Both the position numbers and the translations under genes were made by a program. A stretch of DNA of 64,000 nt. Source: Psammoneis japonica. Its lineage: Eukaryota. Each line of letters starts with the position of its first letter. The first letter of the stretch is position 1. The stretch lies in contig QPGO01000062.1 of NCBI GenBank assembly GCA_008632985.1, positions 124,001 through 188,000 of the forward strand, read 5' to 3'. The notes under the pieces were generated by a model. It was not told where the DNA came from. It was given only the letters and a program-made list of their open reading frames with translations, and made no database searches. This document shows positions 30,552-63,045 of the stretch, piece by piece.

Positions 30552-31808
30552 TTATTTGTCCTCCAGGTTCATGATTCCGGGCAAGAGCTCTCCCTGCAAG
30601 AGTTCAAGAGAGGCACCACCGCCAGTTGAGACAAAGGTAACCTTGTCTTCCATACCAGCCTTAGCAGCAGCAGTGGCGGAATCACCGCCTCCAATCATTC
30701 CACAGCCGCCCGCCGCATGAAGTTCCGCGACAGCGTCAAGAATAGCGAAAGTACCCTTGCTAAAGTTGTCAAACTCAAAAACACCAGCCGGTCCGTTCCA
30801 AACAACCGTCTTGGAGGCCTTGACCTTGGATGCAAAGAGTTCCATACTAGCGGGACCACAATCCATGCCCTCCCATCCGTCGGGGATGCCTTCTTCTTGA
30901 GTGACAAGCTTGGTTCCATTAGGCTGTTCGTTTCCAAACTCTTGACCGCACAACCAATCAATGGGAAGGGTGACTTCGCAGTTGTTCGCCTTGGCCTTGT
31001 CGAGAATACCCTGGACGAGATCGGCGCCCTTTTTGTCAAAGAGGGAAGAACCAATGTCCATGCCGTAGCACACCTTTAAAAAGGTGTATGCCATGCCTCC
31101 GCAAATAATGATGCCGTCGGCTTGTTCGACAAGCTTGTCAATCAAGAGAGTCTTATCGCGAACCTTGGCTCCTCCGACAATTGCCAACATTGGCTTTTCG
31201 GGATTATCAAGGACCCGAGAAAAGGCTTGAAGTTCCTTGAGGACCAACAGACCAGCAACTTTTGTGGGCAAATCGACTCCCACCAGAGACGAATGTCCAC
31301 GGTGAACCGTACCAAACGCATCGCAGACGTAGACATCTCCGAGCTTCGTCAGAGACGCACGAAAGGCAGCAATCTCTTCTTCAGAAGGCTTGAAGGTTTC
31401 GCCGTCAGCGTTCTTACCCTTGCCTTCTTCCTCGGCGTGGAAACGAACGTTTTCGAGCAGAATAATGGATCCCTCTTCCGGGTCTGCGCAGGCAGCCTCC
31501 ACCTCGGGTCCGACACAGTCCGAAAGAAAGGTGACCTTACGCCCCATCAATTCTTCCAGACGGGTAGCGACGGGTTTCAAAGAGTACTTTGGTACAACGT
31601 TTCCGTTGGGTCGGCCCATGTGAGACATGAGTACGACCGACTTGCAGCCGTTATCAAGGGCATACTGAATGGTGGGGATGGCACCAACAATGCGCTGGTT
31701 GTTGGTGATGTTGCCTTCTTTGTCCATCGGGACATTAAAGTCCACTCTCATTATGACTCTCTTGCCCTTGACGTCAACATCTTCGATTGATTTCTTGTTG
31801 AGATTCAT
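30552..31808 (-). CDS. PGK: Phosphoglycerate kinase (no targeting presequence, likely cytosolic)
   Basis: Motifs RVIMRVDFNVP, SHMGRPNG, LLENVRFH, GGAKV.DK, WNGPAGVFE, GGGDS, STGGGASLELL. Confidence 0.97.
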   Translation of the reverse strand: MNLNKKSIEDVDVKGKRVIMRVDFNVPMDKEGNITNNQRIVGAIPTIQYALDNGCKSVVLMSHMGRPNGNVVPKYSLKPVATRLEELMGRKVTFLSDCVGPEVEAACADPEEGSIILLENVRFHAEEEGKGKNADGETFKPSEEEIAAFRASLTKLGDVYVCDAFGTVHRGHSSLVGVDLPTKVAGLLVLKELQAFSRVLDNPEKPMLAIVGGAKVRDKTLLIDKLVEQADGIIICGGMAYTFLKVCYGMDIGSSLFDKKGADLVQGILDKAKANNCEVTLPIDWLCGQEFGNEQPNGTKLVTQEEGIPDGWEGMDCGPASMELFASKVKASKTVVWNGPAGVFEFDNFSKGTFAILDAVAELHAAGGCGMIGGGDSATAAAKAGMEDKVTFVSTGGGASLELLQGELLPGIMNLEDK

Positions 31809-40740: not shown

Positions 40741-41019
40741 GGTGTGTCCAAAGCAATGATAACAATAAAAATAATAATGGTGCCAAAGGAAAAAGCATGT
40801 TGTGGCGGTTTTGTGCTTTTTGAATTTTTCCAGAAGAGTGAGCAACCGTCAGGGTAATTTTATTGCATATTCGCATTTGCATTTTTTCATATATTTTTGT
40901 GTTCTACGAAGCCGTAGACTTTCGTTTGATTCCGTTATGTCAAACTGTACGACCGGCGCGACCGGATGCATTCTTTGTCGACCTCTCCGACTGCTGTGCA
41001 AACAACTCAACTGGGAACT

Positions 41020-44000
41020 GGGAATGAATGACAGCTGACTGCCTTTTGACTCATGTGGCACTCTGCTTTCCAACACTGCCTGAGCACAGAAGAACTGCAT
41101 TCATTCAACATTTGTTTCAACTGTCAAACTTCTTTTTGTCCTTCCAACACACCTGAACCTTTCACATGGAAGAAATGTGAGCCTTCTTTTTTGTCCCTTT
41201 TCGCACCACTGTTGTTGCGCTGGGTGTGGGTGTGGTGTGGGGTGGGGAGATGAGTCAAAAAATGAAAGACACACAATTTTTTTTAACTGGTGCAAGCTCA
41301 GTTGGCAGTTCTCCCACAGAGAGACTGAACGGACAGAGAAGAACTGGTGCTGCAAAAAGGCTCTAAAAGGCAGAAACAGGGTTCTTTTCCCCAAGTTGTT
41401 GTGAAAACCCTGGGGCAGTTGCTGTCCTCCAGTCACCAAACTTTTGGTCATGTGGACTTTTTGGGACACCCACACCTGGAGTGGAGAGAGCAATCTTTTG
41501 TGATCAACAAGATGTCAACTGCTTTGGTTGGTGGCAGTTGGCTGGCTTTGCTGTTCTTTGAATGGGGCAGGAGCCACTGGCCAAAGCACCAGCCACAAGA
41601 AGTGCTCCTGCAGTGGCAGCAGCTGTGGCTCTCACTTGCCAAGGCTTCATCAGCTTTGACTGAGTTCCTCTCAGCTGTCTTGTGGCACTGTTTTTTCATG
41701 TGCTCTGCATTTTGATCTAACCCAGTCTGCCTGCAAGTCTGAGTTTGTCACCCGCTTGCAGCACATTTTTTTCATGTGCTCAGCATTTTGATCTGATCCA
41801 GTTGGCCTGGCTGAAAGGCCAAGTTTGGCACCTCCATGTCTGTGTGTCTGTCATTTTTGTGTCAATGCATGGATGTTGTTGCTTGTCGCTGGTGCTCCAC
41901 TCTCTCAAAAGATTGCAAAAAGGGCTCTGCACAACACAGCAGAATTTGCTTCACAGTGTGATTGCATTTTTTGTCATGACTGTGAGAATCATCATCCATC
42001 CACTGCCTCTTGATTTCTTGTCCTTGGTCCCAAACAAGACCAAAAACCAACAAAACACCACCCTCCAATCCATGCCATTCTTGTTGTTTCATTCAGACCA
42101 CCTGTCACACTCATGGTGATTGGGGTGCAAATTTGGGATGCAACTTGGGGGTGCAAAAATGCACATTGCATGAACTCACACCCAAAAATTGCAGATTGTT
42201 TTGTGCAGGTGTGGGAATTTAAAACCACCCTTCTGAAACAAAAAGATGTTTTCTTCTGACTTTGAAAAGCAGCTGGCAGGACAATGGTGCATCATCAAAA
42301 ACTCATTGTCTGCAACCCACAAGCAACCTCACGCAATGTGCCAAAGAGTTGTCTGTCATGAGTTTGCAGTTTGACCAAAGGTGCTGGAAACTTCTTTGCC
42401 GTTGCTGTGGGGCAACAAAAGCACAGGCACAATGGCCATGCTGCCAACAACAAAAAGCTTTGCTGAATTTTGCAGCCACTGATGACAATTCCTTCTGACC
42501 AGTGGTTGGAGAGAAGCAGAGCAAGGATGAGATGTGTTTTCCCAACCACTGTGGAGTGCAGATGCACAACAGTTGATTGATTTTGTGGTTGCAGGATGCC
42601 TCTGCTTCAACAAATCACAGTTGGGGCTTTTCAATGAAGTGCTGCTGCTGATGTGCACTGCAAGTGTTGCAGCATTCAACTGGAAAAGTCACCAGCCACA
42701 GGATCATTTCCTGATGGCGCCAGTGGCAGAAAGTGAGCAGCTGTCAACACTGCCATGTCCCAGCGTGCCTGCTCAGGAGCTTGTGGCTGCATTTGTTTCA
42801 CATGCACTGGTGCAACAAGAGGTGCTTGCACCATCACACATTTTGACAACATTTGCAGCTCAAAGCTGAAGGTGAAATTGTCCTGTGAGCTTGCATCCTT
42901 GACTCAGTGGTGAGAAATTGACAACACACTCACACCTCAGAATCTCAAATTAAAAAGGAGCACCTCCTGGCACCACTGATGAGCCTCCACACTGCAATCA
43001 GCCACCTGGTGGAATCTGAGTGTTGCAGTCCAGCAGTCATGGTGTCTCACACAGACACCAACAAGCAGCAGCAGTGCCAAAGTGGGGCATCATGTGGGCT
43101 GAGAACCTGCCTCACAATGAGAAAGAGAGCCCAAACCTGCCTGCTGTTGAGCATGTGATTTTTTCTTGGCACTCTTCCTTGATCAACTCATTTGGTGCTT
43201 GCTTTGTCCTCAATGCTGACATGCACTGGCTCCAAGTGGGAGACCTTGACATGCCAGAGTGGGGCAATTTTGGATGAAAACAGACCACCCAATGCAAAAA
43301 TTGCAAAAGGCTCTGCACAACAAAAATTGCTTCAAAAGCACCTTTGCAGAAAACAGTCAATGCAAAAAAGCAGCTGCTGATTGCAAGACAAGATTTGCAC
43401 TGCAATGTTCCTTGGTTGCTGCAGAATGCTTCTGTTTGTTTTTTCCACAATCTTGTGTGCACTGCAAAGCTGCTGTCATTTTTTGGCATCAGGCAAGCAC
43501 CTCAAATGCAGCCATTGTCTTCACTGGTGGGCAACTGTTGCCTGAACTCATTGAAAAAGAGCGCGCAACTTTTAAAAGCAAGTGATGCTCATCCAGAAAC
43601 TGGACCTCCAGACAGGTTTGACCAAGTGAAACAGAGAGAAAGGAAAGATGCAGACAAAACCAAAAATGTGGGTGCAACCCCATGACACAAAGACAAAGCA
43701 TGCAAGAAGGCATCCAACCAAGGCAACACCTTGTTTTCTGCAAGAACAATGGCACAGACTGCATTCTTGTTGCATGTGGTGGGTGCAATGGCACAACTGT
43801 TGTTGGGTGTTTTTGGTCAGAAGACATCAAAATTTGACCAAAAAATTAGACCAAAAAATGCTGGGGATGAATGAAAAATGTGCACAACCATGACACAAAG
43901 CTGAGGCACAAGGCATTTGAGGCAGAAACTCATGGCACAAGAGCAACAACACACTTTCTGTGTTTGTTGCAATGAATCTGGTGGTGCTGTTGTTGCCAGG

Positions 44001-45480
44001 AATTGTTGGCCACATGCTCAGATGTTAAAATTGACATGAACAACACACAACTCAAGTCAATCTCTCTTGTTGTTTTGTGACAGAAAATCAAGTCATGAGG
44101 AGGCTCCCAAGCCAAATCTGTGAAACACAAAAATGCAGTCTCACAGACCAGCTGTGGCACAGCCACCTCAATGATGCAACCAACTTCTCTTCAAGTTTTG
44201 TGCCTCAATGATGCAGCCTTGCTGTCAAAAAAGAGCTGTGGCTGTTGCCTTGCTTTTTCTTGTCAAATGTTGGTGTTTGAAACTTTTCTCTCAAGCTCAT
44301 CTCAAAATGCTGCCTGCCAACCCACTTCCACCAGCAACATTCAATTTCCACCCAATCTTCAACAAACCAACCAGCAACAAAGATTTGTTGGAAGTCACCC
44401 ATGTGTGTGGGCAACTTCAAGAGGAGATGAAAACAACAAAACAGCTGTGCTGGATGCAGCCAGAATTTCCATGCTGGACCAGTCTGCACCCTCTCCACAA
44501 TGACTTGGTGATTTGGGGGTCCTGCCCTCCTGCAAATGTCTTTGGTCTCTTTGCATGACTGTTGCAGGCCAGTGAGAAGAACATCTGGCATGTCAGCTGA
44601 TGCCACTCTGAAGAAGAGAAGCTCCATTTCTTCTCAGCAATGTTGCAAAGGAGCTCTGTGCAGCATCTTTTTTCAGCGCCAGTTTGCATTGTCAATGGAG
44701 TGTTTGGCAGCTTCATCATCCTGAGCTGCTGTGTGCGGTGTCTTCATTTGCATCAACAACAACACCAGCAATCTCTTGTGCTGCTGTGAGCCCTGGCTTG
44801 ACTGTGACATCTTTCACACAGTGGTGATTGGTTGGTTAGAGTGTGTGTCTGACGGCAGCAAGTTCATTTGAAGTGCAGACAATGCATGGACGCAAAGAAG
44901 AAAAGCCGCTCCAAACCATTCGAACATGGATTTGGAATGAGTTCAATGATCTGATCTCAGATCCAGTCACCAGTGCTGGCTCCAATCTCCTGACCATTGC
45001 ATTTTTTGGTTTCCTGCTTTGTCCCATGACAAAGCACACTGCATGTGCCACATCATGTGGCCCAGCTGCTGCGACACCATGGGGTGCAAGAAAATCAAGT
45101 GTCGCGGTTGCTGCAATTGTTGCTTTGTTGAGGATGCCAAAAGAAATCATTTTGAGTCAATTCACTGTGTTGGTTGAAAAAGTACAAGGCTTCCAGAGCA
45201 ATGAGTTTGTGATGCAAGAGTGACAACATTGGCCAGCTCAATGTGGCCGATCTGATGGTGGCGCAGCTTTTTGAGCTGTTTGTTGACTGCTTGGACACAC
45301 CATTGCTCCTTGCTGACAATCATTGCATTGTTGATGAAGCAATCACCTTGCTTGGAAATCAAAATTCCTGGATCAAAAGTGACAACGTGCGGCTCAAGTC
45401 TCCGCTCGCCAGTGTGTGCTGTGTCAATTGCGAGCTGTGAGGATGACCACATGCAGAGTCTGCCGAATCAATTGGCACTG
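41020..45480. pseudogene. Hypermutated TpA/CpG-depleted tract B (likely decayed mobile element)
   Basis: About 9 TA in 41040-45180, all within TTA/TAA. Tyr-free His/Cys/Gln-rich broken ORFs. Grades into normal composition after ~45500. Confidence 0.7.
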
Positions 45481-47429
45481 CCCTTGTTGGTCTGAGCCAA
45501 CCGGTGGCATCCAAAGAACAAGTGGGTGGATGTGTTGGAACTGCCAGCGCTGAACCATTGCTTGGAGACGCTGGAGATGGGAGAGATGCACTCCCAACTG
45601 GGAGGAAGACGGATTGGCGTCGCAGAAATGACAATCTTGAAATTCTTGGGAAACCCGGAGTTACTTTGCTGTCGAGCCGTTCGGATTTATACTGGAACTT
45701 GTGTAGAATTTGATAAGGACGCAATTCCATTTTGATAAGGACAAGTAGAAATGCACGGTCCATTTGGGTACATATTTGATAAGGACGCCTGAGCAGGAAT
45801 CCTCTTCATTTCCTTCATTCCACTCAAACGCTCCCGATTTGGCATACCGCACCGTAAGAAACGGCCATGCACATAACACTTTGATGCATCTCGCCATGGC
45901 ATACATCGTGGGGTAGACGTATTTTTCATGGGTGATCTCTTTCTATCGTTGTTATAAAGAGGTTGATGCATTGGTTTGGTTTCATGGGGCGCTTTGGTTG
46001 CGACACACGGTGCAAACGGTTGCATGCTTCGACTCGTAGCTCGATTACGGCACGGTACGGGTAACACCTGAATGGTCGACAACATTGCGGCGGTAAGTTC
46101 TTTCTATATTTTCTCGTTTTATGTCGTTTTCTTAGTCACCAAAGATCATTGTTGTGTTTTGTTAGAGCTTGAAAAGTGGATGGATCGTCTCTTACGGTCG
46201 ATTATGGTATCTGTTATGTTGGCATGTTTTTCAAGCCGTTGGCGCCGCCAGAGCATATCCGTTTATGAGCTTTATGCTTCATCCCACTCTACATCCTTTG
46301 GTTCATCTATTATATATATTATGATGCATTCGTGACTCGCTTGATATCCTTCTTGGGGGCTTGGTCGGTGCATAATAGCGGCATGTCATTTTTCGGGCGT
46401 GTCAATTTCTCAAAAGTGCATGCCGTGGGAACAAAACGACGCGATGGAGCCTGGAGGACACTTACGATGTTGGTATTTGTCAGACAGTCTTATCATAGTC
46501 AAAAAAAGGTAAGCCTGTGAGTATGTTGTAATTGTTTGAGTATTTGACTCGTTTTGACGAAACTTGCATACCTCACGAGCCTTTTTCTGTGCGTCTCGTT
46601 CATGCGTGCAGGTGTCTGGTCTAAAATGACCCTTTCCACCTACCCTTCAACCGTATTATCATCAATGTCTAAGACATGATATTGTCCATGTTAGTTTGGG
46701 AGATCTTGGTGGTGTAACTACGACTCTAGGCTTTGCAATGGGTAAAATGGGGAGGTTGAGGCTTGTGTTGGCGGGCTCATTGCCTCCTCTTGAATGCGCG
46801 GATGCCACGAACCGCTGATGGTACTTGGGGGCATAAAAATTGGTAAGGCGACTCAGCTCCACCTTTAAAAGTTGCCCTAGTGAGTGTACTGTGATATGTA
46901 CAGTAACCCCAATGGATTGTTATTGTGTACGTTGTTCCACTCATATTTTCATTTTGCCTGTCATTTTTTCAGCATGGATATCTGGGACTGCGAGCGCTTA
47001 AAGTGGCATTTTTTTTTCCATGCCAATACTCTACAAGACTCAAGTCCTTTGATAATAGTTGTTCCTTTAGGGAATCAGATTGTGGAGCTTTCCGCATCTG
47101 GTCGGGTCTAAAGAGGAAATGAGGTGGAGCCGGCTTTCAAAAGTGAATGAGTTTTGGCTTGTCGTGCGGTTGCATCTCAACGGTAGCGTTCGCAGTGGGC
47201 GTGTAAATTTTCCGTGATCAATGAAGCAGTAGATAATGTATTAAGATAGATCATGGCATGCTGCTGTTCTTTAGAGTGTTTGCTGCTAGCCAGCTAGAGA
47301 GCTGCGACTACTACGTTGGAAGTGCTAATCGTCTGGGCGTCGGGCGGGCGCACACACTGTCGATGCATCTCTCCCTCTCTCCTCCTCCTCTTTTGCCTCT
47401 TCTTTTTTTCATAAACTCGGAGCTGCCAT

Positions 47430-48860
47430 CTTGTTGCTTGTTGCTTGGTCACTCACAGGTTGTTGGTGCTTGTTTCTGGAAAGAGATCAGGTGTCGCACT
47501 CCACCCGTGCAAGAACTGCAAAGTGTGAGCTGAAAGGAATGCATGAGACTGGCATTTTGTTTGAAGCCTCAAGATGGATCATCGCTCAATCAAATGCCCA
47601 AGGTCAGAGGCAGCCACAACAGTTGGCAAGCAGGTGTTTTCCAACTTCCAACATTGTTGAATGTGCCAACATGTTGCCTCAGTTTCTCTTGCATCCTTTG
47701 CATCTGTCGCTTCAATCTCTGGAACCAGCCGGAGGAAATTGGAGCTGAGCCTGCCAAGCCTGCAAAACCAAAAACAAAGCAGAAAAAGTCAAACTCTGCA
47801 AAGATGAACAAGAACAGCAACAAAGAGAAAACGTCCTCATCTTCAAGAGCATCACAAGAAGCATCGAGAGGGAATGTCATGCCTTGTCTAAAACTTCACT
47901 TTTTGTCTGTTCTGATGCTTCATCTCCTCTCTGCACCTTGCATCCATGTTCAGCATGGCAACAGAGCTGAAGGGCAAGCAATGGCTCAGGGCTGATGTGC
48001 TGAGCACACTTGATTGCATGGAATGGGTTTGTTTTGAAGCTTTCAAATGGTCCACCTTTCGCGGCAATGCAGTGTCATCTCATGTTGAGCACTGCCTTGC
48101 TGCTTCGCATGGAAGAGCTTGTGCTCATGGAGAAAAGACTCGACAGCTCCTGGCGGCTCCTTGACCTTGGAAATTGGCGGTGAAGCCCAAAATTCCAATG
48201 GCACTTTGCCACAGCAATCTTCACACATCCACAATGGGGCTGGCAGCAATGTTCACAACAGCGGCACTGCTTCAGTGTCCAACAGTGAGAATGGATGAGG
48301 AAACGGTGGTCGACCAAAGCACTCCCACAAAGATGTGGTGGCATCTGGCAAATCTGAAGAGATCGCTGTTGTTGTGTCAACACTGGCAAAAGCACATGCA
48401 CAGCAATTGGTGATGGTGGCGTGTTGAGTTGCATCCTCTTATGGATGAGAAAATGGAGTGCTGTTGTCCAAAGACATTTTGATTGCACACCAAGCTCGTT
48501 CGGCGGCTGGCTTGGATCCAGGTTTCTTCTTGCAATCGAGGCCGGCATCGACTGCTGACATTGTGGCTGATGATTCTCAAGCCTTGGCAGCAGCTCTGAA
48601 TGCAGTCAACTGTTACAAACTGGTGAGGAATGCTGCCCTTGCAGCACAAGAGGAGTGCAACCAACACCTGGAAAGGAGCTTTTGTTGCCCATTTTTGGGT
48701 GTTTTCTCTCACATCTCTTGCCATTGACACGCTTGTCACAGCAAAATACGGATGTCATGCATTGACATTTTTGGCAGGAAAAGGTTTGGTGGCAAGGTCA
48801 AACATTGGTTGTTGCCGCATCATGGTTGGTTTGTTGTTTCCGTCTTTTCTCGCAGCAGCA
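47430..48860 (+). pseudogene. Hypermutated tract containing a plus-strand gene relic
   Basis: ORFs 47946-48164 and 48174-48413 are in the same frame, separated by a TGA (possibly from CGA). TA nearly absent. Flanked by related ~90-bp direct repeats. Confidence 0.55.
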
Positions 48861-49118
48861 TGAATGTCGTAAAACGTCTGGCCGTCGTACGTACGAATTG
48901 AACGTATGGCGTTTTCTCCTCTCCTTTTCCTCTTTTTTTTTTTCATAAAATCGGAGCTACCTACCGGTACCAAAACTGCCTGAGCAAATCCATTCCAACA
49001 CATCATTGACATCTCAACTCTCAATTGTAAAACCTCCTTCGTGTTCTGCCCACACACCTGAACCTTTTACATGGAAGAAAGATGGTGCTTGCGTTTCACT
49101 GCAGACAGATGAGTCAAC

Positions 49119-51746
49119 ATGAAAGACGGTCAACAAGACGTGTCAATGATCATGCGGACCACGTCTGATTCTTTCGAGGAGAACATGGAAAGAGCAAACG
49201 CTGATGTGCATGCCAGTGAACCAGACAATGGCAACGAATGTTCAACTTCTTCTGATTTGAACAAAATTATTGAGGATGAAAGTGACAACGAAAGCGATGC
49301 CGAGCGGGCGTCGACAACAACAAAACTGCCTGCTTCTGGTGCATCTAAAAAGCAGAAGGCTTCCAACACCGAAAGTGTGGTTGCACCGCGAGGCTTGTTA
49401 CAGGAGCCTGGAGGCGTAGCAGTAACCCCAGGGACCACATCAAGTCCAACAACAAGCACAACCAAGAAATCAGATTCTTACAAGAAAGCATCCCAAAAAC
49501 AGACACCAAGAGGGTGGGCGTTTCGTCCGTCCTCACAAGTCTCAGTTCCTGGTGCGGTTGCGGTAGTTCCTGGGACGACGCACGACAGTGGCAACAACCT
49601 TCGAGCAAACTCGGACTCAATCTTGATGCAAAAGCACCTTCACAATCGTCGTGCGAATCTCAGACAAGAACATAAACAAGCCACCTCATTTCCCTTCAGT
49701 CTCCGGATAGTTTTTCAACGGGCTCTGTTCACGAAACATCTCTTGTAGTTTCTACGACAGATGGGGGCCCAGATGGGTTGGAACCTCCGAGACTTCTGGC
49801 CGAAAAGCATTCTCTTGGATATTATCGGAAGAATAGTCGTGAGCCAACTAGTCAAGAACGAAGCGTTTCCAGGTTTGAGCCAGCTGCACAAGGCAGTTTT
49901 GTGTCTACGGATGGGGCAACTCAGCTCGTCAGTAGCCCATCAATGGATGCTAGGTCTTTGTCAGGAGGCGTGCAATCCACTCAAGAAAGCGAACCGGGGA
50001 CGTTAGAGTATCAAAGGCCGACGTCCTTGAGATCATCCCTCCGATCTAGTTTAACTCGCCGTACGTCTTTGGAACAGGATGAACGTAAAGATGCTACTCT
50101 TGTGAATGCCACACTTGTTGAAGAAAGGGATGACTCACCAGTGTATGCTGCTGAAGCGGTCCCAGAAGAACGCATCCGACGAAGGCGTAGAAGAGTGCGC
50201 GCTGCCGGTGTAATCTTGATCGGGGCCCTCATCACTACGATTGTTCTCGTGACGACAAAACCTAGAAGAGGCGACGACGATGGAAGCAATGGTTCAAAAT
50301 GCCAAATCCCCCTGGAGGAACAAAAGATCACTACGCAGTGTGCATGCCAAGGCGAAATATCTATGATTTCGCGTGATGCTCTAGAATTTGGTGATGTCAT
50401 GCTGAACCTGCTTGTCGATAGCGAGGTTCTGCCTTTTAATTTCAGAGAGAACTTCAATGAAACCTCATGCCTCCCGGAGAATCAGGCTCTATGGTGGATT
50501 GCTGATCCAAATAATGTTGACATTCCCAGAGACTCATTTGAACAAGTTGTATTGAATCGAAAGTTTGAACATCAGATTATTCAACGCTACGTTCTTGGTT
50601 TGCTATATCTATCCATGGGGGGCAAACAATGGACTAGGCAAGCGAATTGGCTCAGCACTGCACCTGCTTGTACGTGGTTTGGACTTGTTTGCACGGAAGC
50701 GTCACGTTTGGCGCTGTTGGAACTACCTGCCAATGAATTAAGTGGTAGCATTCCAATCCAAATTGGGAATCTTTTACATCTGCAGAGCATTAATTTTTCG
50801 GGGAACCAACAATTGACAGGTAGTCTCCCATCGGAAGTTTCGAAGATTAGAGGCTTGCGTAAGTGCAAGCGAAGTGCTGTTATTCTGTCTCAATTTACCG
50901 TTTTTCTACCGCTTACGACCAATTTAATCGGTGTCTTGCCTACCCGCTCACATCGTAGGGAGCCTCAAGATTAAAAACACCGGACTCAGCGGAGAAATTC
51001 CAGTGTCGTTGAAGGAGAACGAGGTTCTCAGTACGTACTTGGGCCATTGTGTTCTCTTCGTTTTGATTGCCCATGTATGTCAAACTTTTGTGACTGTTAC
51101 TGATTGAATGCTCTGCTCTCTCTAGCAACGATTACGTTGTTCAATAACTCACTCTCTGGAGTGTTTCCTTCCGAGGTGGCTCAGCTGCCACTACTTCGTA
51201 AGTATCGATTGAGCAAATTGCCTTAATATGCTGTCGATTGTGCCTCACACTTACTAGTGCTGCATTCCTGTTTGTGTTTCACAATACGCAGAAATCTTTG
51301 ACGTTGCAAACAACCAGTTCACCGGGTCGCTGCCTACTGAAATTGGAAAGATGACGAATCTCGGTATTTTGGGCATTGACAATAACGATTTCACGGGAGA
51401 AATACCAAGTGAGATTGGCAACGCCCAGAGCCTTCAAATTATCAAAGCGACGAACAATCGATTCGGTGGTACGATACCCAATGAAGTGGGTAATTTAAAG
51501 TTTCTAGGAGATTTGGAGCTAATGGGCAATAATTTTACGGGTCAAATTCCAAGCAGCTTTGCGAACCTCACAAGACTTTCCCTCATAAGCATATCAACAA
51601 ATCTAGCTCAAGGATTTGTTGCCAAGACACTTTGCGATACTCTTGACATGCTTGAAGCAATTTTTCTGGACTGCAACGATACACAATCGTTCTGCTCTTG
51701 CTGCTTTTGCAAAGAGTCAGAATTAGGCAGTTTCACTTCATTCTAA
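49119..51746 (+). CDS. Type II membrane LRR receptor-like protein (copy 1)
   Basis: Disordered N-terminus with PGGVAV/PGAVAV, RRRRR then TM, QRYVLGLLY..W..NWLS..C.WFG..C cap, plant-type LxxNxLSGxIP LRRs. Frameshift at ~49695. Introns 50859-50958, 51031-51125, 51198-51291. Confidence 0.85.
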
Positions 51747-51812
51747 GTTTGTACCGTAAGTTAAAATTGCCATACGAATTTTTTGTCTCTATTTTTTAAA
51801 TAGCGATAGCAA

Positions 51813-52230
51813 CACACCGTGGCATGCGTGTTTTGAGCAAGAGCTGCTGCTGGCATCAGAGTGCCGTTGTTGCCCAGCAAACACCAGCTGCCCATGTAAA
51901 TTTTGGCGAGGGTAGGGCGATTGTTGCCCAATTGCTGACAGACTCTTTCTCAAGCACCATGATGCATGAGCTTGCCCAAAAGACAGAATGACATCATTGG
52001 ATCACATGAATTTCACAACAGCAAACATGGTGAGAGAAACACTTGTTTTGATTGATGGAGCAGGAGTGGTTCATTGCAAACAGAGAAAGGAGAGATGCTG
52101 GATGTGAACCCAAGCAGCACAAATTGCTGTGTGTTGACAACAGAGAGGTGGTCGGGAACAGTGAGACACTTGAAAGACATGCAGGCATCATGTGCACAAA
52201 GAGAGCAATCAAAGTTCCTCACCAAGAACT
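51813..52230 (-). pseudogene. Truncated, hypermutated paralog of the 5' part and upstream region of the RNI-like LRR gene at 60217-61221
   Basis: Colinear with ~61010-61420, e.g. caagcaccatgatgcatgagcttgcccaaaag (51951) vs caagcgccgtgatgaacgaacttgcctaaaag (61144). Confidence 0.85.
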
Positions 52231-52239
52231 GTCTTGTTG

Positions 52240-55200
52240 TTGAGCTTTGAAAAGCAGAGGGCACACCAGATGTGAATCTGACAAAAAACTGCATTTGTTT
52301 CTTCATGCTTCATTGCAAGAAACATGTGTGGTCTGCTCCATGGATGCCTCACTTGCCACACAATCACAGCAAGCTCTCAGACTGCATTTGTCATGGAAAG
52401 CCATCTTGGCACCCCACACCTGCTGTGCTTCTTTTGCTGCAACTCTGGCGAAGCTCCATGAAGCTCCATGTGTCACGCCAGCAATTTATGACTGCCTTGT
52501 TGAGCCCAGAGAAGAGAGCAAAGATGCAAATCTCAACAACATGCAGGTTCATTTTTCACTCAATCACAAAGAGGTCTTTCTCTTCTACAGACATTTCAGG
52601 TTTCACAAGCAGTGTGTCAAGTCATGAGACTGCATTTGTCATGAACTTCATGATTTGCACCCCCAGCAGATGTCTCAGCCACATGAATGGTGCACAGACC
52701 CCAAACAAGACAGAGGCAGAATGACAACAAGCAGCTTTGCAGTCTCAGCAAGTTTTCAGTCTTTGTCCATTCTAACCTGCACACTGCAAACAAACTGTCT
52801 GTCTGCTGGCAACATTTTGCTTTTGAGCTGTGAAGTGTCAGCTTGGACAATGTGCATTTGTCAGGTGGAGCTTTGTCTCCTGAGCAGCTGTTGTTGTTCA
52901 GACTTTCACTGTGTGTCACTGGTCTTTGGCACTGTTCTTTTCTTTTGATTTAGCAGTGGCAACCTTTGCTGCTCTGCCATGCCACTGGCAATGCTGTCTT
53001 TGTTTGCAACTCTTGGAAAGCTGTCCATGTTTGTCCCCTGAATTTGTTGTGCTGGACATTTGAGAATTTACATGGTCCATGGATTGGACACAAAATCTCC
53101 CACTGTTCTCTTGTTGCCATGTTGCTGGAAACATTGTCAAGTTGCTTTTTCTAAAGATGCTTGTCTGCCTTTGAGAGTGTCTTGTTTTAAATCAAGCCAC
53201 TCTGTTGAACTCAGGTTGTTGGTGCAAACAAACCAAAATTGTTCTGGGCCAGGCAGTTGTGCATGGTGACTTCACAGCATTCACACACCACCATGCCCTG
53301 CTTCAATCCACCACACACAAGAGACAGATTCAAGTGGTCCCCCAACTTGTGTGCAGGGCAATGCCATGCACCTGCTTTGGCTTTGCAAGCTGCACAATGC
53401 ATTGGCAAACCTCCAACCATTGCAAAGCAGCACATCCATCTGCTTCCATGGTTGTTGGTCCATTCTGCACAACCAGCAAATTCAACAGTGCTTGATTGTG
53501 GGCTTCAATCAATGCCCTCCTCTTGCACCACTTTTTGAGGTTCACTTGCACACATCTGGTGTCCTTTGTCCAGGCCAAACATTTTTTTGCATTGGCAACC
53601 AACCAGCACCAGAGAAACTGGACAACCAACAATTCCTTGTTCAAACTGATCCATGGCACCAAACAATGGAGACATCGTGCATCAAACAAAGATGTGTGCA
53701 ATTTGTGTCTTCATTGTCATTCTCCCAAATCCAAAGAGTGCAGCAATGTTGTGAGACTCTGTTGTGAGAGGGTGCCAGCCACTTTTTGCCTGCTTGGTGT
53801 GTTGCCCCTCTTGGTTGCTTGCCATGGCATCATGCACCACTGCCATTGATGCAAAATGTCTCTCACAGCAGAGTGGTTGGCTGTGGGCACTGCCAGCAGC
53901 TGTTGTGACTCAGGTGTCTCCACGAACCTGTGTTTTGGCAATGACAAGTGGTGCAGTTTGCTTGCAACACCTTTGACTGCCATTTGCAGGCCTTGCAGCT
54001 CTTGTCATCAAAGCCACAGTTCTGGTTTTGCCTGGGCAAACATCAAGATTGATCACATGATGTTCAGCAGCACCAAAAAAAAAACAAGAGACTTGGAATT
54101 TGTTGGGTTTGTCTTTGTTGTGCTGCCTCATGAGGCAGAACCAAGAAACCAACAGCTCTGATGCAGGGCAATGCTGTGAAGCATTGCACTCATTCAGTGC
54201 TTTTTTGGAGTTGCTGTGCAGTGCTTCCCAAATTTGTGTCAGCACCATCTGAGACACACGTGTTTTTGGATGCCCAGTCACTTGCATCAAGCGTGGCCTC
54301 AATGTCACTCTGTTTCCACCAACACAGACAGACAGCCAAAGATTGTCTGTGCAAAAGCACACTTTGTGGCAACCTCTGTTTTGGCATGAGCCATGGCCAA
54401 AATGTTCTCAGCAATCCTCAAGAAGAAGCAGTGCATTTCTCCACAGAGAGATGTGCCCCATCACTTGACTCCACAGCACACCTGACAGGTCAAAGTGAAG
54501 TGTGGGTTTTGCCATTTCTTGCAATGGTTGTTGGAGCCACAAGCAAGAGTGACAAGAAGTGACACATGAGTTTGACCACCAGCTGCAGAGGAGTTGAGAA
54601 CAGTCCAACAGATCATTGAATTGCTTTGTGATGCTGGGGTGCAGCATCAGCCCTGACAGGCCATCACGCACACTTTGTGAGGCAGCAACCAGAGAAGACA
54701 CATCTGTGCTCACCGCAAAACCTGCTCAAGTTGTCTCCTGCAAGATTGTTGATGCAAATGTTGTTGCCACAGTTGACATCTGCTTTGTCTTCATGTCATC
54801 ACCAGCCTTTGCTTTGGGTTCAGAAAAAGTTTGGCTGACATTGCATGTCCTCAAGTCAATGGATTCTTGCCAACCCCATGTGCCATCAGCTTCATCCAAA
54901 TCTTCTCCATTGCCAATCTTTGTTCTCAGTGGAGCAGGCTGCACAACTGCTTGAAGCTTTGTTGTTGGGAACAATTGAGCACACACTTGATGTTGCTGTT
55001 GCTCATGTGGCGCACCATTCATTGGACTGAGTGAGTGGTTTCTTGCTTGCACTGGAACAAAAAGCCATGCCTTTGCAACCCTGTTGCTGGCAGCAGTTTG
55101 TCAACATGCAGAAACACATTGACAACAAACAACTGAGCCAGAAGAGGAGTGTGTGCTGGGTTTGCAGATGTTGTGCTGGTTTGTGACAAACGGTGATCTC

Positions 55201-57295
55201 TGTTGTGTTGTCATCACCTCCTGCGTTGCCACTTCCAGGTGAGACATTTTTGCACCATTGCTTGGCACAAGCTCAGAGCCAATGTTTTGGGTCTTGCCTG
55301 TTGGCAAATGGCACCCAAACATGAGAAGGGTCAATTCTTGCATCTTGTAACTCAAGCCACATGATTTTCAAAATGTTGCCATTTGATTTCTCAGACACTT
55401 CACAATCTCCCCCAACGTGCACAAACTGAGAAGTTGTTGATTGTTGGCATGAAGCAGCCAATGTTCAGGAAGGGCACACATCAAATCTGTGATCACCACC
55501 AAATTTGCTTGGCAAAGCTCTGGGGCAAACTCTGGCTCTTTTGGTGGCGAGACTCTGACTGCTGGGAGGCACAAAAGCAACCAATGTCCAGCATTTCCAA
55601 CCAAGTTTGCTGCATCTGACATTTCCCCTTTGCAATGTCATCTCTGGCACATGGCACCCTGAGGGTTGCTTGGAGCAAATGTTCTGCTCCATTTTGCAGG
55701 GCTGCCCATCAGATCTGCTGTGTTGAGGAATTTTGGCCTTTGGTGAAAGAATTGAGCAAAATTGCTGCACTTTAGAAAAGGAGTCATCAGCCATGAGATC
55801 AATTTTTGCAGCTCAAGTGTCGACGTCTTTGCTGTGTTTGGAGATTTGGGTGCACAGTCTGTCTGTTTTCATTGACTTGCTCTGTCTTTGAGGATTTTGA
55901 AAGTTTGCAGACCACATGAAGCCGGCTCCACAAATTGGTGCATCAGATGCAACTGGCATCAGCTTTTGGGAAAAAAGTCAAAAGTGAGCACATTGCAAGT
56001 GTGCCTCAAGTGAGCCCAATGAAGAGTGTGCTGGCTGGGCCAATCCTTGCATGGAGTTCTGCAGAGGCCAGTGCAGCCAACAGCGTGCTGAGCACATTTT
56101 GCCAGTGCATTGTCCTCTCATTCCATGCAGCAATGTGCAGATTGATGATTTGTGCATGAACAAAGATGCAGGGAAAAAATGCCACAATCACTTCTAAGAA
56201 CTGCTTTTTGCAAAATTTGTGTGGAAAAAACCACAAAAAACAACTTTTCAGCCAGAGCTGCTTTTCGCAGTGTGGGGTGTGGCACACAGTGAAAACAACT
56301 GAGCAACATTGGCAAGAGCTGGCTGACAAACTGGACAAGCAACAAAAGAATGTGCAAATCTGACAAGTGTGCAAAATTTTAAATGAGGCATGCAGAGTTG
56401 CAGGGAAAAATTGTCAGGCACCTTGCGCTCAACACATTGCATGATTTCCCCTGAGTTGCGAGCAGTTGCGTGCAATGATGTGAAGGAATTTGCGCTGACT
56501 TTTTTGTGGGGCTCAACATTGGACAACAAAGGCAACCTCTCCTGCAGAAAGAGGGTGTGGAACATGCAGTGCAAAGAACCTCAAACTTCACTTTTTGAAT
56601 GCTCTGGTTGCGACCAAGACAGAGTGCCGCCAAAAGACTGCAGGAATTGACAAAGAAAACTTTTGCGTCACATTGTAAAACACATGATGGAACTTTTTGG
56701 GAGACAAAACAATGATGCTGAGTTGATTTTTTGACAGGACTCATGTTCGTTGTCAAGTGCGACCAAACCATGACTTGCACAGAAATGTGCAGAACATGTG
56801 CCAAGCCCTGTGCTCTGGTTGCGATCATAGCTCCAAAAAGATCAAAGCAAATGAGCACAAAACTTTTGCTGAAAATGGCAAATTGCATGACAGAACTTTG
56901 GGAGATAAAACCGGGTTGAAATTGATGGCCAGATTGAACTTGCCGAATGGAATGTGAAAGGGCAATGTCCCTGCTTGTGCACACGAACCACCTGGTGGTC
57001 CGTGTGCATTTTTGGGTGCACACGAACCACCTGGTGGTTCGTGTGCACCCCACGCAAAATGCTGCGTAGATTTGTACCGAATTAAATCTGAGTGCCTACA
57101 TCTGCAGTAGGATCTACGTGAAAACGCACTCGAAACAGTGTCCACCGAGCCGGCAGTCATGTGCCGGGCGTCGTGAAAAGTATTTTATGTCTGAGAAAGA
57201 GTTCGTCAGGGCCGGCGAACAACACCCCTCTACGATGCGACTGGTATAAAATGTACGTAAATGCACAGGAACCAGCATGTGGTTCGTGTGCAAAT
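52240..57295 (-). mobile_element. Hypermutated piggyBac-like transposon relic (tract C)
   Basis: Minus-strand SWFCLMRQHNKDKPNKFQV..HVINLDVCPGK (54146-54028) resembles piggyBac transposase RQY.K.KP.K...Y..N..VY.GK once H/C->Y is restored. Palindromic repeats lie at the right end. Boundaries approximate. Confidence 0.6.
56978..57292. repeat. Three copies of a ~31-37-bp palindrome (tgcacacgaaccacc-t-ggtggttcgtgtgca)
   Basis: 56978-57008 (one mismatch), 57014-57050 (perfect 18-bp arms), 57262-57292 (degenerate). Confidence 0.9.
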
Positions 57296-57477
57296 TAGAG
57301 CTCGTGAAAAATAAGCAGGGATATAATGCGAGTATTCCTGCTGGTACGAAGTGCCTTCTCTGCGCTGTCGCTGCGTGACACACGACTGAAAACCGCACGT
57401 GGCCGGTAATAAAACTATCGGTTCATTTTTTGGAAGAAAGATGATTTTTGCGTTGCACTGCAGATACAAGAGCCAAA

Positions 57478-60149
57478 ATGAAAGGAAGTCAACAAGAAGT
57501 GCCGATGATCTTGCAGACCATGCCTGATTCTTCCGAGGAGAAAATGGAAGGAGAAAACGCTGATGCGCATTCAAGTGAACTAGGCATCAGTGACAAATGT
57601 TCAACTTGTTCTGCTATGAACGAAGTTCGTGAGGACGAGGATGAAAGTGACAACGAAAGCGATGCCGAGCGGGGTTTGACAACAATAAAACTACCTACTG
57701 ACAACGAAAGTGATGCCGAGCGGGGTTCGAAAACAACAAAACTACCTGCTTCTGGTGCACCTAAAAACAAAAAGCAGAAGGCTTCCAACACCAAAAGTGT
57801 GGTTGCACCGCAAGGCTTGTTACAGGAGCCAGGAGGCGTAGCAGTAACCCCAGGAACCACCTCAAGTCCAATATTAAGCACAGCCAAGAAATCAAATTCT
57901 TGCAAACACACATCGCCAAAACAGACACAAAGAGGACGGTCGTCTCGTCCGTCCTCACAAGTCGGTGCGTTTGCGGTAGTGCCTGGGACGACACGCGACG
58001 GTGGTAACATCCTTCGAGCAAACTCGGACTCAATCTTGATGCAGAAGCACCTTCACAATCGTCGTTCGAATCTCAGACTAGGTCAAAAACAAGCCTCGTC
58101 ATTTCTCGCGCAGTCTCCTGATAGCTTTTCAATGGGCTCTGTTCACGAAATATCTCTCGTAGTTTCTACGACGGGTGGGGGTCTAGATGGGTTGGAACCT
58201 CCAAGACTTCTGGCCGAAAAGCAATCTCTTGGACACTGGAAGAATAGTCGTGAGCCAACTATTCAAGAACGAAGCTTTTCCAGTTTTGAACCAGCTTCAC
58301 CAGGCAGTTTTGTGTCGACGGATGGGGCAGTTCTGCATGCCAGTAGCCTGTCAATGGATGCGAGGTCGTTATCAGGAGGCGTGCAGTCCATTCAAGAAAG
58401 CGAACCGGGGACGTTAGAGGATCAAAGGCCGACGTCCTCGAGATCATCCCTCCGAACGAATTTAATTAGCACTACGTCTTTTGGAGAGGATGGACATGAA
58501 GATTCTGCTCTTGTGAATGCCACACTTGTTGAGGAAAGAGATGATTCACCAGTGTATGCTGCTGAAGCGATCCCAGAAGAAAAAATCCGACGAAGGCGTA
58601 GAAGAGCGCGCAATGCCGGTGTAATATTGATCGGTGCCCTCATCACCACGATTGTTCTCGTAACGACAAGAGCTAAAGGGAGCAACGGTGATGAAAACAA
58701 CGATTCAAAATGCCTAATCCCTCTGGAGGAACAAAACATCACTACGCAGTGTGCATGCCAAGGCGAGATATCTATGATTTCGCGTGATAGTCTAGAATTT
58801 GGTGATGTCATGCTGAGCCTGCTTGTCGATAGCGAGGTTCTGCCCTTTAATTTCAGAGAGAATGTCAATGAAACCTCATGCCTCCCAGAGAATCAGGCTC
58901 TGTGGTGGATTGCTGATCCAAGTAACGTTGACATTCCCAGAGACTCGTTTGAACAAGTTGTATCGAATCGTAAGTTTGAATCTCAGATTATTCAACGCTA
59001 CGTTCTTGGTTTGTTATATCTATCCATGGGGGGCAAACAATGGACTCGACAAACGAATTGGCTCAGCAGTGCACCTGCTTGTACGTGGTTTGGACTTGTT
59101 TGCACGGAAGCGTCACGTTTGGCACTGTTGGAACTACCTGCCAATGAATTAAGTGGGAGCATCCCGATCCAAATTGGGGCTCTTTCGCATCTGCAGAGCA
59201 TTAATTTTGCGGGGAATGAACAATTGACAGGTAGTCTCCCTTCGGAAGTTTCGAAGATTAGAGGCTTGCGTAAGTGGAAGCGAAGCGCTGCTATTGTCCC
59301 AATTAACCGATTCTACCGCTTACGACCAATGTAATTGGTGTCCTGCCTAATACCCGCTCTCATCGTAGGGAGCCTCAAGATTAAAAATACTGGGCTCAGC
59401 GGAGAAATTCCAGTGTCGTTGAAGGAGAACGAGGTTCTCAGTACGTACTTTGGTCATTGTGCTCTCGTTTCGATTGCCCATTTATGTCAAACTTTTGTGA
59501 CTGTTACTGATTGAATGCTCTGCTCTCTCTAGCGACGATTATGTTGTTCAATAACTCACTCTCAGGAGTGTTTCCTTCCGAGGTGGCTCAACTGCCACTG
59601 CTTCGTAAGTGTCGATCGAGCAAACTGCCTTAATATGCTGTTGATTGTTTCTCACACTAGTGCTGCATTCCTGTTTGTGTTTCACAATACGCAGAAGTCT
59701 TTAATGTTGCAAACAACCAGTTCACCGGGTCGTTGCCTACTGAAATTGGAAAGATGACGAATCTCGGTATTTTGGGTATTGACAATAACGATTTCACGGG
59801 AGAAATACCTAGTGAGATTGGGAACGTTCAGAGCCTTCAAATTATCAAGGCGACGAACAATCGATTCAGCGGTTCGATACCCAATGAAGTGGGCAACTTG
59901 AAGTTTCTAGGACATTTGGAGCTGATGGGCAATGATTTTACAGGTCAAATTCCAAGCAGCTTTACAAACCTTACAAGACTTTCCATCATGAGCATATCCG
60001 CAAATCCAGCTCAAGGGTTTGTTGCCGAGACACTTTGTGATACTCTTGACATGCTTGAAGCAATTTTTCTGGACTGCAACGAAACACGATCTTTCTGCTC
60101 TTGCTGCTTTTGCAAAGAGTCAGAATTGGGGAGTTTCACTTCATTCTAA
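57478..60149 (+). CDS. Type II membrane LRR receptor-like protein (copy 2, intact)
   Basis: Close paralog of 49119-51746 with no frameshift. Introns 59270-59368, 59441-59532, 59605-59694. Two 72-bp exons each encode one LRR. Confidence 0.9.
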
Positions 60150-60216
60150 GTTTGTAAATTGCGTAATTTTGTCTATAATAAATAACGATAGCATAATGTA
60201 CGGCGGATTCTCTATT

Positions 60217-61221
60217 CTAAGCCTTGGTGATATGAGGGGCTCCTTGAAGAAAGTAAAAGATCAACTCGGGTTGATCCTGAACGCCGGCCAAGACTTGAGC
60301 CCAGAGAGAACTCGGCGCGCCTTCGGCACTCAAGAGTCGTCGTCCGGCTCTGTTTAGCTTGAGGTAAATGTCCAGTTCGTAGCGCAACTGTGGTTCATCG
60401 AGCTGGCCAAGAAACATCTTCTCGACGTAGTAATTCTCTTTCATGCCATTCCTGATAATGGCAGACGCTCCGTTCGCTCCAAAGCAGTTGTTCTGCAACC
60501 ACAAGCGCTTGAGGCTCCGGTTCATGACAAGCATCACCCCAAATGCCTCGGCACCCTCGTTGCCAATTTCGTTGAGACGCATATCAAGGACTTGCAAGAC
60601 GGAATTCGTAGCAACGCAATTGGCGAGCTCTTTAGCTCCATCATCACCAATGTTATTGCCTCCTAGATTGATTTCGCAAAGAGTCTGGTGCGGAGCAGCC
60701 AGAGCGAAACCAAACGCTTTGGCTCCTTCATTGCCAATGCGATTTCCGTAGAGATCAAGCACTTCAAGTGACCTGCTGTACTCTACTCCTCGAGCAAGCG
60801 TCATTGCTCCACACGGACCGATACTGTTCTTGGAGAGATTGACTCTCTTGAGAGTCCGATTCATACGAAGAGTGGCTCCCAACCACGTGCCCCCCTCATC
60901 ACCAACAGCGTTTCCTTCCAACCGAAGAATCTCTATAGACGTGTTATCTTGAAGCATATCAGCCAAAGCCATGGCGCCGGCATTGCCAATGCTGTTGTAG
61001 CACAAGTACAACACCTTAACATGTGTGTTTTGAGCAAGAGCTGCGGCCAGAGCCATGACGCCATTGTCTCCTAAACGCCAACCGCCCATGTAAAGTTCGG
61101 TAAGGGTGGGGTCATTGTTACCCAGGCGCTGACAGACTTCTTTCAAGCGCCGTGATGAACGAACTTGCCTAAAAGTAGGTACGGCGTCATTGGAGCGTAA
61201 GAGTTTCGAAACAGCAGCCAT
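60217..61221 (-). CDS. RNI-like (NLRC3/RanGAP-type) leucine-rich repeat protein
   Basis: 28-aa repeats LxxLxLxxNxIGxxGAxxLAxxLxxN; C-terminal LNRAGRRLL..LWAQVL..IFYFL. Start placed at MAAVSK. Confidence 0.88.
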   Translation of the reverse strand: MAAVSKLLRSNDAVPTFRQVRSSRRLKEVCQRLGNNDPTLTELYMGGWRLGDNGVMALAAALAQNTHVKVLYLCYNSIGNAGAMALADMLQDNTSIEILRLEGNAVGDEGGTWLGATLRMNRTLKRVNLSKNSIGPCGAMTLARGVEYSRSLEVLDLYGNRIGNEGAKAFGFALAAPHQTLCEINLGGNNIGDDGAKELANCVATNSVLQVLDMRLNEIGNEGAEAFGVMLVMNRSLKRLWLQNNCFGANGASAIIRNGMKENYYVEKMFLGQLDEPQLRYELDIYLKLNRAGRRLLSAEGAPSSLWAQVLAGVQDQPELIFYFLQGAPHITKA

Positions 61222-61744
61222 GGCGAGAGAGATACTTGGTTTTCTTGATGGAGAAGGGGGGATTCGTTGCAAAGAGAAAGGAGAGAAACCGGGTAAACCC
61301 CGGTAGCACAAGTCACTGCTGACACCAGAGAGGTGGTTAGAAGAATGAGACACTTGAAAAAGGCACAGGGCACAGGCATCAGAGCAGACCCAGAAAAGAA
61401 TCGAAATCGCTCGCCAAGAGAGAATGACGAAAGTTGACACCCAATCGTGTGGTGGGGCTTCCAGAAAAGGAAAGGTGTCATGATACAAGACTCGATCCCT
61501 TAAACTCAGACTACTTTGTTCGCGTTTAAATGTCGTAGCACGACTAATCAGAAATACGTACTCGCTTCTGGTACTCTTCTTGCGTACCTTCTACAGAGCA
61601 CTCGCATTGGGGTGGTGGTTTGGACACTCGGTTGCGACCAATTTTTCGACACCGCAACAGGCAAACAAAAAGACACGAGAAGAAGCGCCCAACGACGCCT
61701 TGTGCCACTGTTTCTTTCACTGGAAAACGAATTGTTAGAGTTCA

Positions 61745-63045
61745 CACCAATTCGATCACTCAAAGTGTTGGCAAGGATGCTGACATGGAGTGATCAACTG
61801 AAGAAGAAATGCAAAAAGAAGCAGGACTGAGATTTCCAAGTGCTTCAGACGGCGCTGGATGCGCCATGCTCTTGCTGGCGACAAAGCATGTCATCGGTGA
61901 TTTGGCTTGCTGGCAACATTGGGTGATTCATCTGGGTTCCTGCTGCTCTTCTCTCTGTCCAAGACCTGTTGCTGACAACCACATCTGTGTGCTGTTTCTT
62001 GCCTGATTGGCGTTGGCGAAGGAGGGGAGCACACAGAGCAGAGAGTGAGAAAAAGCGCTGCCTTGGCAAAGGATGTGTCAAGTGCACTGTCTTCCACAAA
62101 CAGGATGGGCTGAAGACTGCTCTGTCACAACCACCTCTGACTCCCCTCTTCTGGAGGCATGCCGCCTTTGCTTCTTTGTCCCTTGTGTCGACGTCGTCCA
62201 GCGCCAAGCACAGCTGGCATGGTGCTGTCTCAGGAGCCTGACTTGAGCATCAGCATTCTCCATGGAAGGCTGCATTGGCTGTGTCAAAGACATTCTCAGA
62301 GGGCTGGCTTGCTCAGTTGTTAGAGCTTTTGCAGGTTTTTCTGAAATGGCGACATTGCAGGCAGCGGGAACAGCAGCACCAGGGATGCTGGGCTTGGACC
62401 TTCACTTGAGGCCAGCACTGGCAACCCACCTCATGGCTGCACCCAGTGCCATTTTCAGTTTGAGCAAGAACACTCTGCAGATGTTTGTTTGAACAATTTG
62501 GGAAGCAGCAGGCACACCCAGATTGTTGTCCATGATGAGCGATCGCTTGTTGTGACTGTGGAGACAACACCCAGCACCCCCTCCTCCAGACAAGCAATCT
62601 CAGCTTGATCATCACATTGGGAGAATCAGGCAATTTTCATTTTCCAACCAATGCCTGCTGTGCACATGGCTTCAGGATGCAGAACAGGATAGTTGGGTGC
62701 AGAGCCCCCATTGTTGCCAGCTGCAGCTGTCAAGAGGAGGGTGCCATTGTCACAGACTTTCTTGTGCTGTTTCAGAATGATTTGTTGTGATCCTCTCCAC
62801 CAAGACTCACACTTTTGACATTGGCTCTCGCGCCCACCATTCACAGCACAGCTTTCAAGAGCATCAAGCATGCAAGACTCAGCTCCTTCCCCCCTTTTCC
62901 AATGTGGAATTTGAGTGGTTTCACATTGCCCATGACACCAGCAATGCCTTGTGATTCTTGCCACCAATGGCGTCTGTTGAGACAGACAGGAAAAAGAACA
63001 GCCTTCTTGCTCTTTGAAAAGGTGCAGAGTCCAACAGAGGCATTC
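61745..63045. pseudogene. Hypermutated TpA/CpG-depleted tract D
   Basis: Only about 2 TA in ~1.3 kb, reduced CG, and broken Tyr-free ORFs. Confidence 0.7.

Follow-up and report, generated by a model that had tools for sequence, protein, structure and literature searches.

The closest described counterpart of the process presented here is a hypermutation specific to TpA that affects integrated NCLDV and virophage DNA in the alga Bigelowiella natans (Mettrop et al., bioRxiv 10.64898/2026.01.13.699255). According to the available text of that preprint, the process was measured de novo, with two viral regions, a Rho of 0.45 (partial TpA depletion) and 124 clusters; its rate lies about 1000-fold above background, it is active in a subset of lines, and a deaminase (ADAT2) is proposed there, not shown. 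RIP of Neurospora, as described in the available part of the source, makes C>T changes that increase TpA, acts on duplicated sequence and leaves its mutations clustered on one strand (PMC7296669). From papers likewise available in part, diatom transposons form CG-methylated islands whose methylation is DNMT5-dependent (PMC9998398), and both TadA-derived editors and E. coli TadA are stated to prefer TAC (PMC8065034). A literature search by titles and beginnings of abstracts, with subscription journals largely outside its scope, returned no TpA erasure in a diatom, and only the Bigelowiella preprint fitted.

Here, we analysed a 64,000-nucleotide stretch of the diatom Psammoneis japonica (contig QPGO01000062.1, positions 124,001 to 188,000; hereafter the window, whose coordinates are used throughout), in which two convergent genes, an LRR receptor-like gene and a ribonuclease-inhibitor-type LRR gene, have been duplicated in tandem. 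The receptor-like gene is kept in both copies on the forward strand (copy 1, 49072–51810; copy 2, 57431–60195), which are 90% identical in aligned columns with symmetric differences; copy 1 has normal TA and CG and serves as a negative control. The second gene is intact on the reverse strand in copy 2, as a single frame of 334 amino acids with a Pfam LRR_6 match (60217–61221), whereas in copy 1 its 3' three quarters have been lost and the remnant (51811–52230, reverse strand) now forms the edge of a multi-kb erased domain. The remnant holds about 70 codons, read from a start codon at 52028–52026, together with about 200 bp of upstream DNA, and carries a stop at codon 9 and a frameshift near codon 28. 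About 809 bp of the duplicate (intact-copy 60194 to ~61002) are missing at a deletion junction mapped to 51807–51811 on the forward strand, which is uncertain by about 10 bp, with the same 5-mer standing at 60189 and 60998 of the intact copy. Along copy 1, TA density is normal as far as this junction and collapses past it. A DNA search of the organism's own genome returned the remnant and the intact gene as the only two copies (2/2 matches). The sequence-only reading had described a mutated paralog of the intact LRR gene; a mutated duplicate it is, although a remnant rather than a whole paralog.

Beyond the remnant lies a 4.7-kb TA/CG-erased block (52231–56967; TA O/E 0.04, CG 0.12, CA+TG 1.91, GC 46%), which is mostly single-copy, with a right end that matches a dispersed repeat at 67–86%. 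A Pfam search of the block in six frames gave no family, and homology to the intact copy past 52230, scored with a transition-tolerant matrix, stayed inside the range of 20 shuffles. The block is followed by a young MITE-like inverted-repeat element of 355 bp (56968–57322), which has at least 41 long matches in the genome and TA at both ends of its intact copies. Further blocks are found at 26500–30000 and 41000–45500 (TA and CG erased) and at 47500–48500 (TA erased, CG loss partial), with edges placed to about 500 bp, and upstream of the intact LRR gene at 61801–63030 (TA O/E 0.03, CG 0.25), the last having no homology to the 52–57 kb block. The assembly is supported across the remnant and block by a 5304-base contig of a public run, probably of the assembly's own sample, which at a depth of 74 matches 51695–56997 except for a single letter and a single gap. 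X2, another run of that sample, yielded a contig over the intact LRR gene (60176–61331) as well as spliced contigs; although listed as 'DNA?', it appears RNA-derived, because its contigs skip three GT..AG introns of the copy 1 receptor-like gene (48964–51665). No X2 contig falls on the remnant or block, which says nothing on their expression.

We then compared the remnant with its unmutated partner (61003–61430, reverse strand; TA O/E 0.53, CG O/E 0.78). A local alignment of 51800–52245 with 60995–61430 comprised 413 columns at 75% identity, half of it non-coding DNA upstream of the ATG. The substitutions singled out by the sequence-only reading are all present: CG>CA, CG>CA, CG>TG and TA>CA between 61144–61175 and 51951–51982, CG>TG and TA>CA between 61219–61238 and 52026–52045, and TA>TG where ttgttaccca (61115) has become ttgttgccca (51921), while the GTAA of cccatgtaaa is retained (61085 and 51891). 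Over the whole alignment, none of the 20 aligned CG dinucleotides of the intact copy is kept (9 are now CA, 8 TG and 3 other), and 2 of 15 TA are kept (6 CA, 3 TG, 1 CG, 3 other), or 1 of 13 when the two at the deletion junction (60998 and 61007) are left out. Altogether 33 of 34 target dinucleotides have changed, a number reached in none of 20,000 permutations (maximum 26), which bears out the predicted enrichment of change at TA and CG. Counted per base, transitions affect 19/40 CG positions against 17/167 other C or G (Fisher p=4e-7) and 12/30 TA positions against 17/176 other A or T (p=1e-4), about four to five times the rate at other bases. Target-base transitions are alike in upstream (11/22) and coding DNA (20/46), so the change is not a codon effect. 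As had been argued, the pair serves as a before-and-after control in which TA>CA and TA>TG occur inside one copy, so that both strands were hit.

The neighbouring receptor-like pair, which the sequence-only reading had left unused, provides a cleaner control from the same duplication. It keeps 94 of 128 CG and 68 of 92 TA, symmetrically, against 0/20 CG (p=1e-10) and 1/13 TA (p=6e-6) in the remnant. Non-target sites differ as well, at 63/340 in the remnant pair and 49/471 near-neutral sites of the neighbour pair (~1.8 times), indicating that the remnant is old or lies in generally faster-mutating DNA; the earlier claim that the copy is not young matches the first of these readings. In the 420-bp remnant, whose TA O/E is 0.07, 2 TA and 6 CG are left, with 2 TA and 5 CG in the 115 bp farthest from the block and no TA and 1 CG in the other 305 bp. 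None of the 6 CG stands opposite a CG in the intact gene, and the TA process does not explain them; CA as a second-choice target was considered as their source but gained no support, A>G after C (25/1368) being no more frequent than after A. The 6 unshared CG and the extra non-target divergence could reflect faster general mutation in the domain or gene conversion between the two copies of the neighbour gene. The direction from intact to mutated rests on composition, on the open frame of the intact copy and on the transposon families below, a protein search for an outgroup having returned no usable sequence (best full-length homologue 34% identical).

Because TA and CG loss are both saturated in this old pair, it cannot order them, and we turned to young transposon copies: 40 aligned copies, out of 41 long matches, of the 355-bp MITE element and 30 of 150 listed Copia loci (two near-identical unmutated pairs, L005/L008 and L030/L031, may be alleles and were not counted as duplicates). 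In the 12 MITE copies with at least 4 TA changes, 116/408 TA bases had changed, compared with 28/542 CG, 37/1630 other A/T and 29/1463 other C/G bases, yielding 60 TG, 50 CA and 3 CG, with transversions at 1/408 TA bases. In the best single case (L025 derived from L098), 18 of 20 TA had changed, alongside 2 CG changes, 1 other transition and 1 transversion. We also selected 11 intact-to-mutated pairs (8 from the MITE, none with more than 2 transversions, and 3 longer ones), in which A>G occurred at 265/918 sites after T, 21/1354 after A, 25/1368 after C and 10/1147 after G, a 16- to 33-fold excess at TpA; C>T occurred at 44/1016 sites before G, 33/3283 other C and, before A, 10/1369. TA loss is thereby shown to be separate from CG loss, earlier and 5- to 7-fold faster.

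The base 3' of the mutated A also matters (12 pairs: C 129/405, T 94/348, G 32/218, A 23/239; p=1e-11), with TAY favoured over TAR, which explains why TTAA, CTAA, CTAG and GTAA persist where DNA has been erased. The retained GTAA of the remnant fits this preference, the site also lying at an edge; at the counts of the remnant itself (C 5/12, G 3/5, A 3/10, T 1/1) a TAY preference is not resolvable. No clear preference was seen at positions -3, -2, +2 and +3. Consecutive hits fell on the same strand in 142/283 cases, the chance expectation, which rules out strand-coordinated bursts.

The changes are distributed by position. In one Copia copy (L121, G000:C388:8598-12281), 98% identical to L115, 32 of 45 TA have changed in the first 1.2 kb and none of 93 in the next 2 kb, a mutation front in progress with TA changes limited to one end. 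Similarly, the MITE of the window has lost only two TA sites, those nearest the block. Among the MITE copies, whose age and position are confounded, all five with both flanks erased carry 7–18 TA changes, whereas none of 20 unchanged copies has both flanks erased (rho=-0.59 across 40 copies, which are not independent because several share subfamily variants or flanks: L139/L140, L088/L091/L100 and L018/L086). A single erased flank is present in 7 of these 20, so adjacency alone is insufficient. Comparing the near half with the far half of MITE copies gave 25 vs 9 (p=0.005), a test on 8 hand-picked copies with at least 1 change that we weigh lightly. The intact partners of mutated copies are spared. 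At two loci (L054 and L029), two diverged copies of the 355-bp element lie adjacent to each other.

To gauge the genome-wide scale, we sampled large contigs blindly, taking 28 10-kb stretches that began at round coordinates, which gave 559 usable 500-bp bins (1 of 560 was dropped for N, and 4 stretches beside the window were left out of the count). The TA distribution is bimodal, with 262/559 bins below a TA O/E of 0.15. Among these 262, CG stays at 0.6 or above in 32, while no bin combines CG below 0.3 with TA of 0.3 or more. Erased bins show a strong fall only in TA and CG and a strong rise only in CA and TG; TpA-poor bins hold 3.0 TA per kb vs 40.1, and 109 CA and TG vs 72. Survival in erased bins is highest for TTAA (ratio 0.47), vs less than 0.01 for ATAT, ATAC and GTAC.

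Taken jointly, these data leave us highly confident that the two-gene unit was duplicated in tandem and that one copy of its second gene lost three quarters of its length, the remnant now standing at the domain edge; that TpA has been converted to TpG or CpA within the multi-kb domain (a single strand-symmetric change, A>G in 5'-TA, best in TAC and TAT) and CpG to TpG or CpA; and that the TA change occurs in DNA, on either strand and at single sites, precedes and outpaces CG loss, is confined by position and not by a homologue, and enters from the erased side. Set against the Bigelowiella process as the preprint's available text describes it, the likeness extends to TpA>TpG and TpA>CpA on both strands of nuclear DNA, to regional action that includes single-copy DNA and to TpA-poor, CpA+TpG-rich clusters, enriched there in mobile-element domains. 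The corresponding features found here are A>G/T>C confined to TpA (10–25 of 1147–1368 in other contexts), TpG and CpA products side by side (3 TG and 5–6 CA in the remnant, and both in the MITE), regionally clustered TpA-poor bins, and mobile DNA (Copia, MITE) hit without need of a second copy, the host remnant being hit too. In these features the diatom process works like TpA hypermutation in B. natans, with which it may share an origin. The differences are that here a diatom and not a rhizarian is concerned, that about half of the sampled DNA is affected, with near-complete erasure (O/E 0.04) and coupled CG decay, and that DNA transposons, LTR transposons and a host-gene remnant are hit, with a TAY preference and a spreading front; the main text of the preprint, as available, uses none of the words CpG, diatom or context.

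RIP, according to the available part of its description (PMC7296669), is likewise a hypermutation that acts regionally, makes transitions at specific dinucleotides, disables repeats and spills over into flanking DNA. However, its three defining features, C>T change that raises TpA, a duplication trigger and one-strand clustering, all fail here: the change is A>G and erases TpA, C>T before A is rare, duplication is no trigger, as the partner at 61003–61430 and the 2.7-kb, 90% identical tandem pair are unmutated, and strand runs are absent. The CG>TG/CA excess and island layout would be explained by CpG decay in methylated diatom islands, so far as the accessible portion of that work goes (PMC9998398), but the removal of TA is not explicable in this way, and CG loss here is the slower, trailing component. 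TadA-derived adenine base editors also make A>G changes in DNA with a TA and TAC preference (PMC8065034, seen in part); these are engineered and prefer TA over GA about 3-fold, compared with the 16- to 33-fold excess here, so this is a likeness of motif and not a test.

Our preferred explanation, a domain process combined with a deaminase, to which we assign as a whole a probability of roughly 0.6, is that the erased domains would be silent, CG-methylated chromatin in which CG loss would be ordinary 5mC deamination and TA loss would be the work of a TadA/ADAT-type deaminase, recruited there, that converts A to I in DNA. Acting over many generations, such a deaminase would disable transposons, and host pseudogenes such as the remnant would be collateral. 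Counted against a defence role are the hundreds of transposon copies in the genome, several young ones of which are unmutated. The deaminase chemistry itself we regard as an even bet, with a TadA/ADAT-type enzyme as the leading guess. ADAT2-like and TadA-like genes, labelled by reading their translations, are present; such genes are near-universal. Our searches for deaminases (ADAR/ADAT1 and APOBEC-like families left out) showed no unusual enzyme among 9 and 5 matches; by their translations the 9 look like ordinary TadA, ADAT2, dCMP, RibD and guanine-type deaminases. Several C5 methyltransferase domains are encoded in the genome; extra ones on G000:C297, C10, C28 and C301, some of them clustered and carrying stops, are possibly element-borne.

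Among the alternatives, passive decay of a modified or damaged TpA base, for example N6-methyladenine or a methyltransferase by-product deposited in silent chromatin, parallel to 5mC decay at CG and with no dedicated mutator, is unlikely in our judgement but the most probable of them. The two dinucleotides, TA and CG, are palindromes that turn into TG/CA in the same domains, one hit per site on a random strand is what slow decay of a symmetric mark would leave, and methyltransferase domains are many; yet TA loss runs well ahead of 5mC-type CG loss, 6mA is not known to be strongly A>G mutagenic, and we found no literature joining diatom, 6mA and TpA. Less probable still is an error-prone, polymerase-eta-like polymerase or repair pathway miscopying TA in silent chromatin. 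The raised non-target divergence of the remnant would suit it, as would the A>G errors that polymerase eta makes at WA, but AA is not a target, strand-coordinated tracts are lacking, and transversions at TA are almost absent (1/408). GC-biased gene conversion or biased mismatch repair among repeats, for which the AT>GC direction of TA>TG/CA speaks, is largely refuted by the context specificity: change is restricted to A after T, GC content is similar in block, remnant and genes (46–50%), and the block is mostly single-copy.

A reversal of the comparison, in which the intact copy had gained TA and CG through fungal-type RIP (CA/TG to TA), is very hard to credit even with the pair lacking an outgroup, as the intact copy resembles all genes here in TA and CG, keeps its frame open and is covered by a contig of a spliced run, while the remnant is broken and TA-poor and RIP cannot create CG. 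ADAR-like editing of a transcript followed by retro-insertion draws on the ADAR preference for A>G with a 5' T stated in the available text of the Bigelowiella preprint (bioRxiv 10.64898/2026.01.13.699255), but for this locus it is refuted. In agreement with the earlier argument against one-strand editing of a retrocopy, both strands are changed in one copy, and the remnant is not a processed, relocated copy, since it lies in synteny as a tandem duplicate and still has about 200 bp of the DNA preceding its ATG; moreover, an inverted-repeat DNA element shows the same changes, those of the Copia copy are post-insertion and patchy along it, and TAG is disfavoured. Systematic miscalls at modified bases do exist in long reads, but a sequencing or assembly artefact has next to no probability given the contig agreement over 51695–56997 and the graded, age-like series among transposon copies. 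The process, acting on DNA, on both strands and limited by position with intact partners spared, is therefore neither fungal RIP nor RNA editing.

Several other observations were made along the way. The genome holds multiple full-length silicon transporters, which mark the organism as a diatom, and decayed copies at G000:C53:435240-435722 and C53:275025-275564, mostly with TGA stops, are candidate further host-gene victims. The region 1–9000 of the window keeps a TA O/E of 0.50 and CG of 0.76, so repeats that look expressed are spared; on the reverse strand within 1–26000 lie three mucin-like paralogues, rich in Pro/Ser/Thr, whose long tandem repeats are nearly identical. A reverse-strand open frame of 1086 amino acids (19283–22543) has normal TA and no Pfam match and is putatively transposase-like by eye. 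At 28084–28235, 152 bp beside a long G run and ending at N are identical to G000:C32:250809-250960, perhaps a scaffolding overlap. The phosphoglycerate kinase at 30555–31805 (reverse strand) has its best named matches in dinoflagellates (76% and 72%), followed by diatoms (68–70%), and may possibly be of lateral origin or a paralogue; as a taxon marker it is ambiguous.

These results add a diatom, in which the scale is far larger, to the single rhizarian alga from which TpA hypermutation was recently described. New from this locus is the before-and-after pair of a host gene with a negative control from the same duplication, and new from the transposon series are the order, the motif and the spreading; together they supply testable rules, namely a TAY motif, TA loss preceding CG loss, spread that starts at an edge, independence from a second copy, and host DNA as collateral. 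A broader reading, which we offer tentatively and would not bet on, is that an old DNA adenosine-deaminase system, guided by chromatin and with a TAY motif, is common to diatoms and chlorarachniophytes; this system would spread along silenced domains, rewrite about half of the genome and disable transposons and stray gene copies without a homology search, as a mirror image of fungal RIP. The process would stand beside RIP as another means for a eukaryote to mutate silent parts of its genome. Transposon dating, measures of pseudogene divergence and gene prediction would all be distorted in genomes of this kind, where the loss of TAA and TAG stops leaves dead DNA with long spurious frames. Should a natural DNA adenosine deaminase be at work, it would be of the class that had to be produced by laboratory evolution for base editing.
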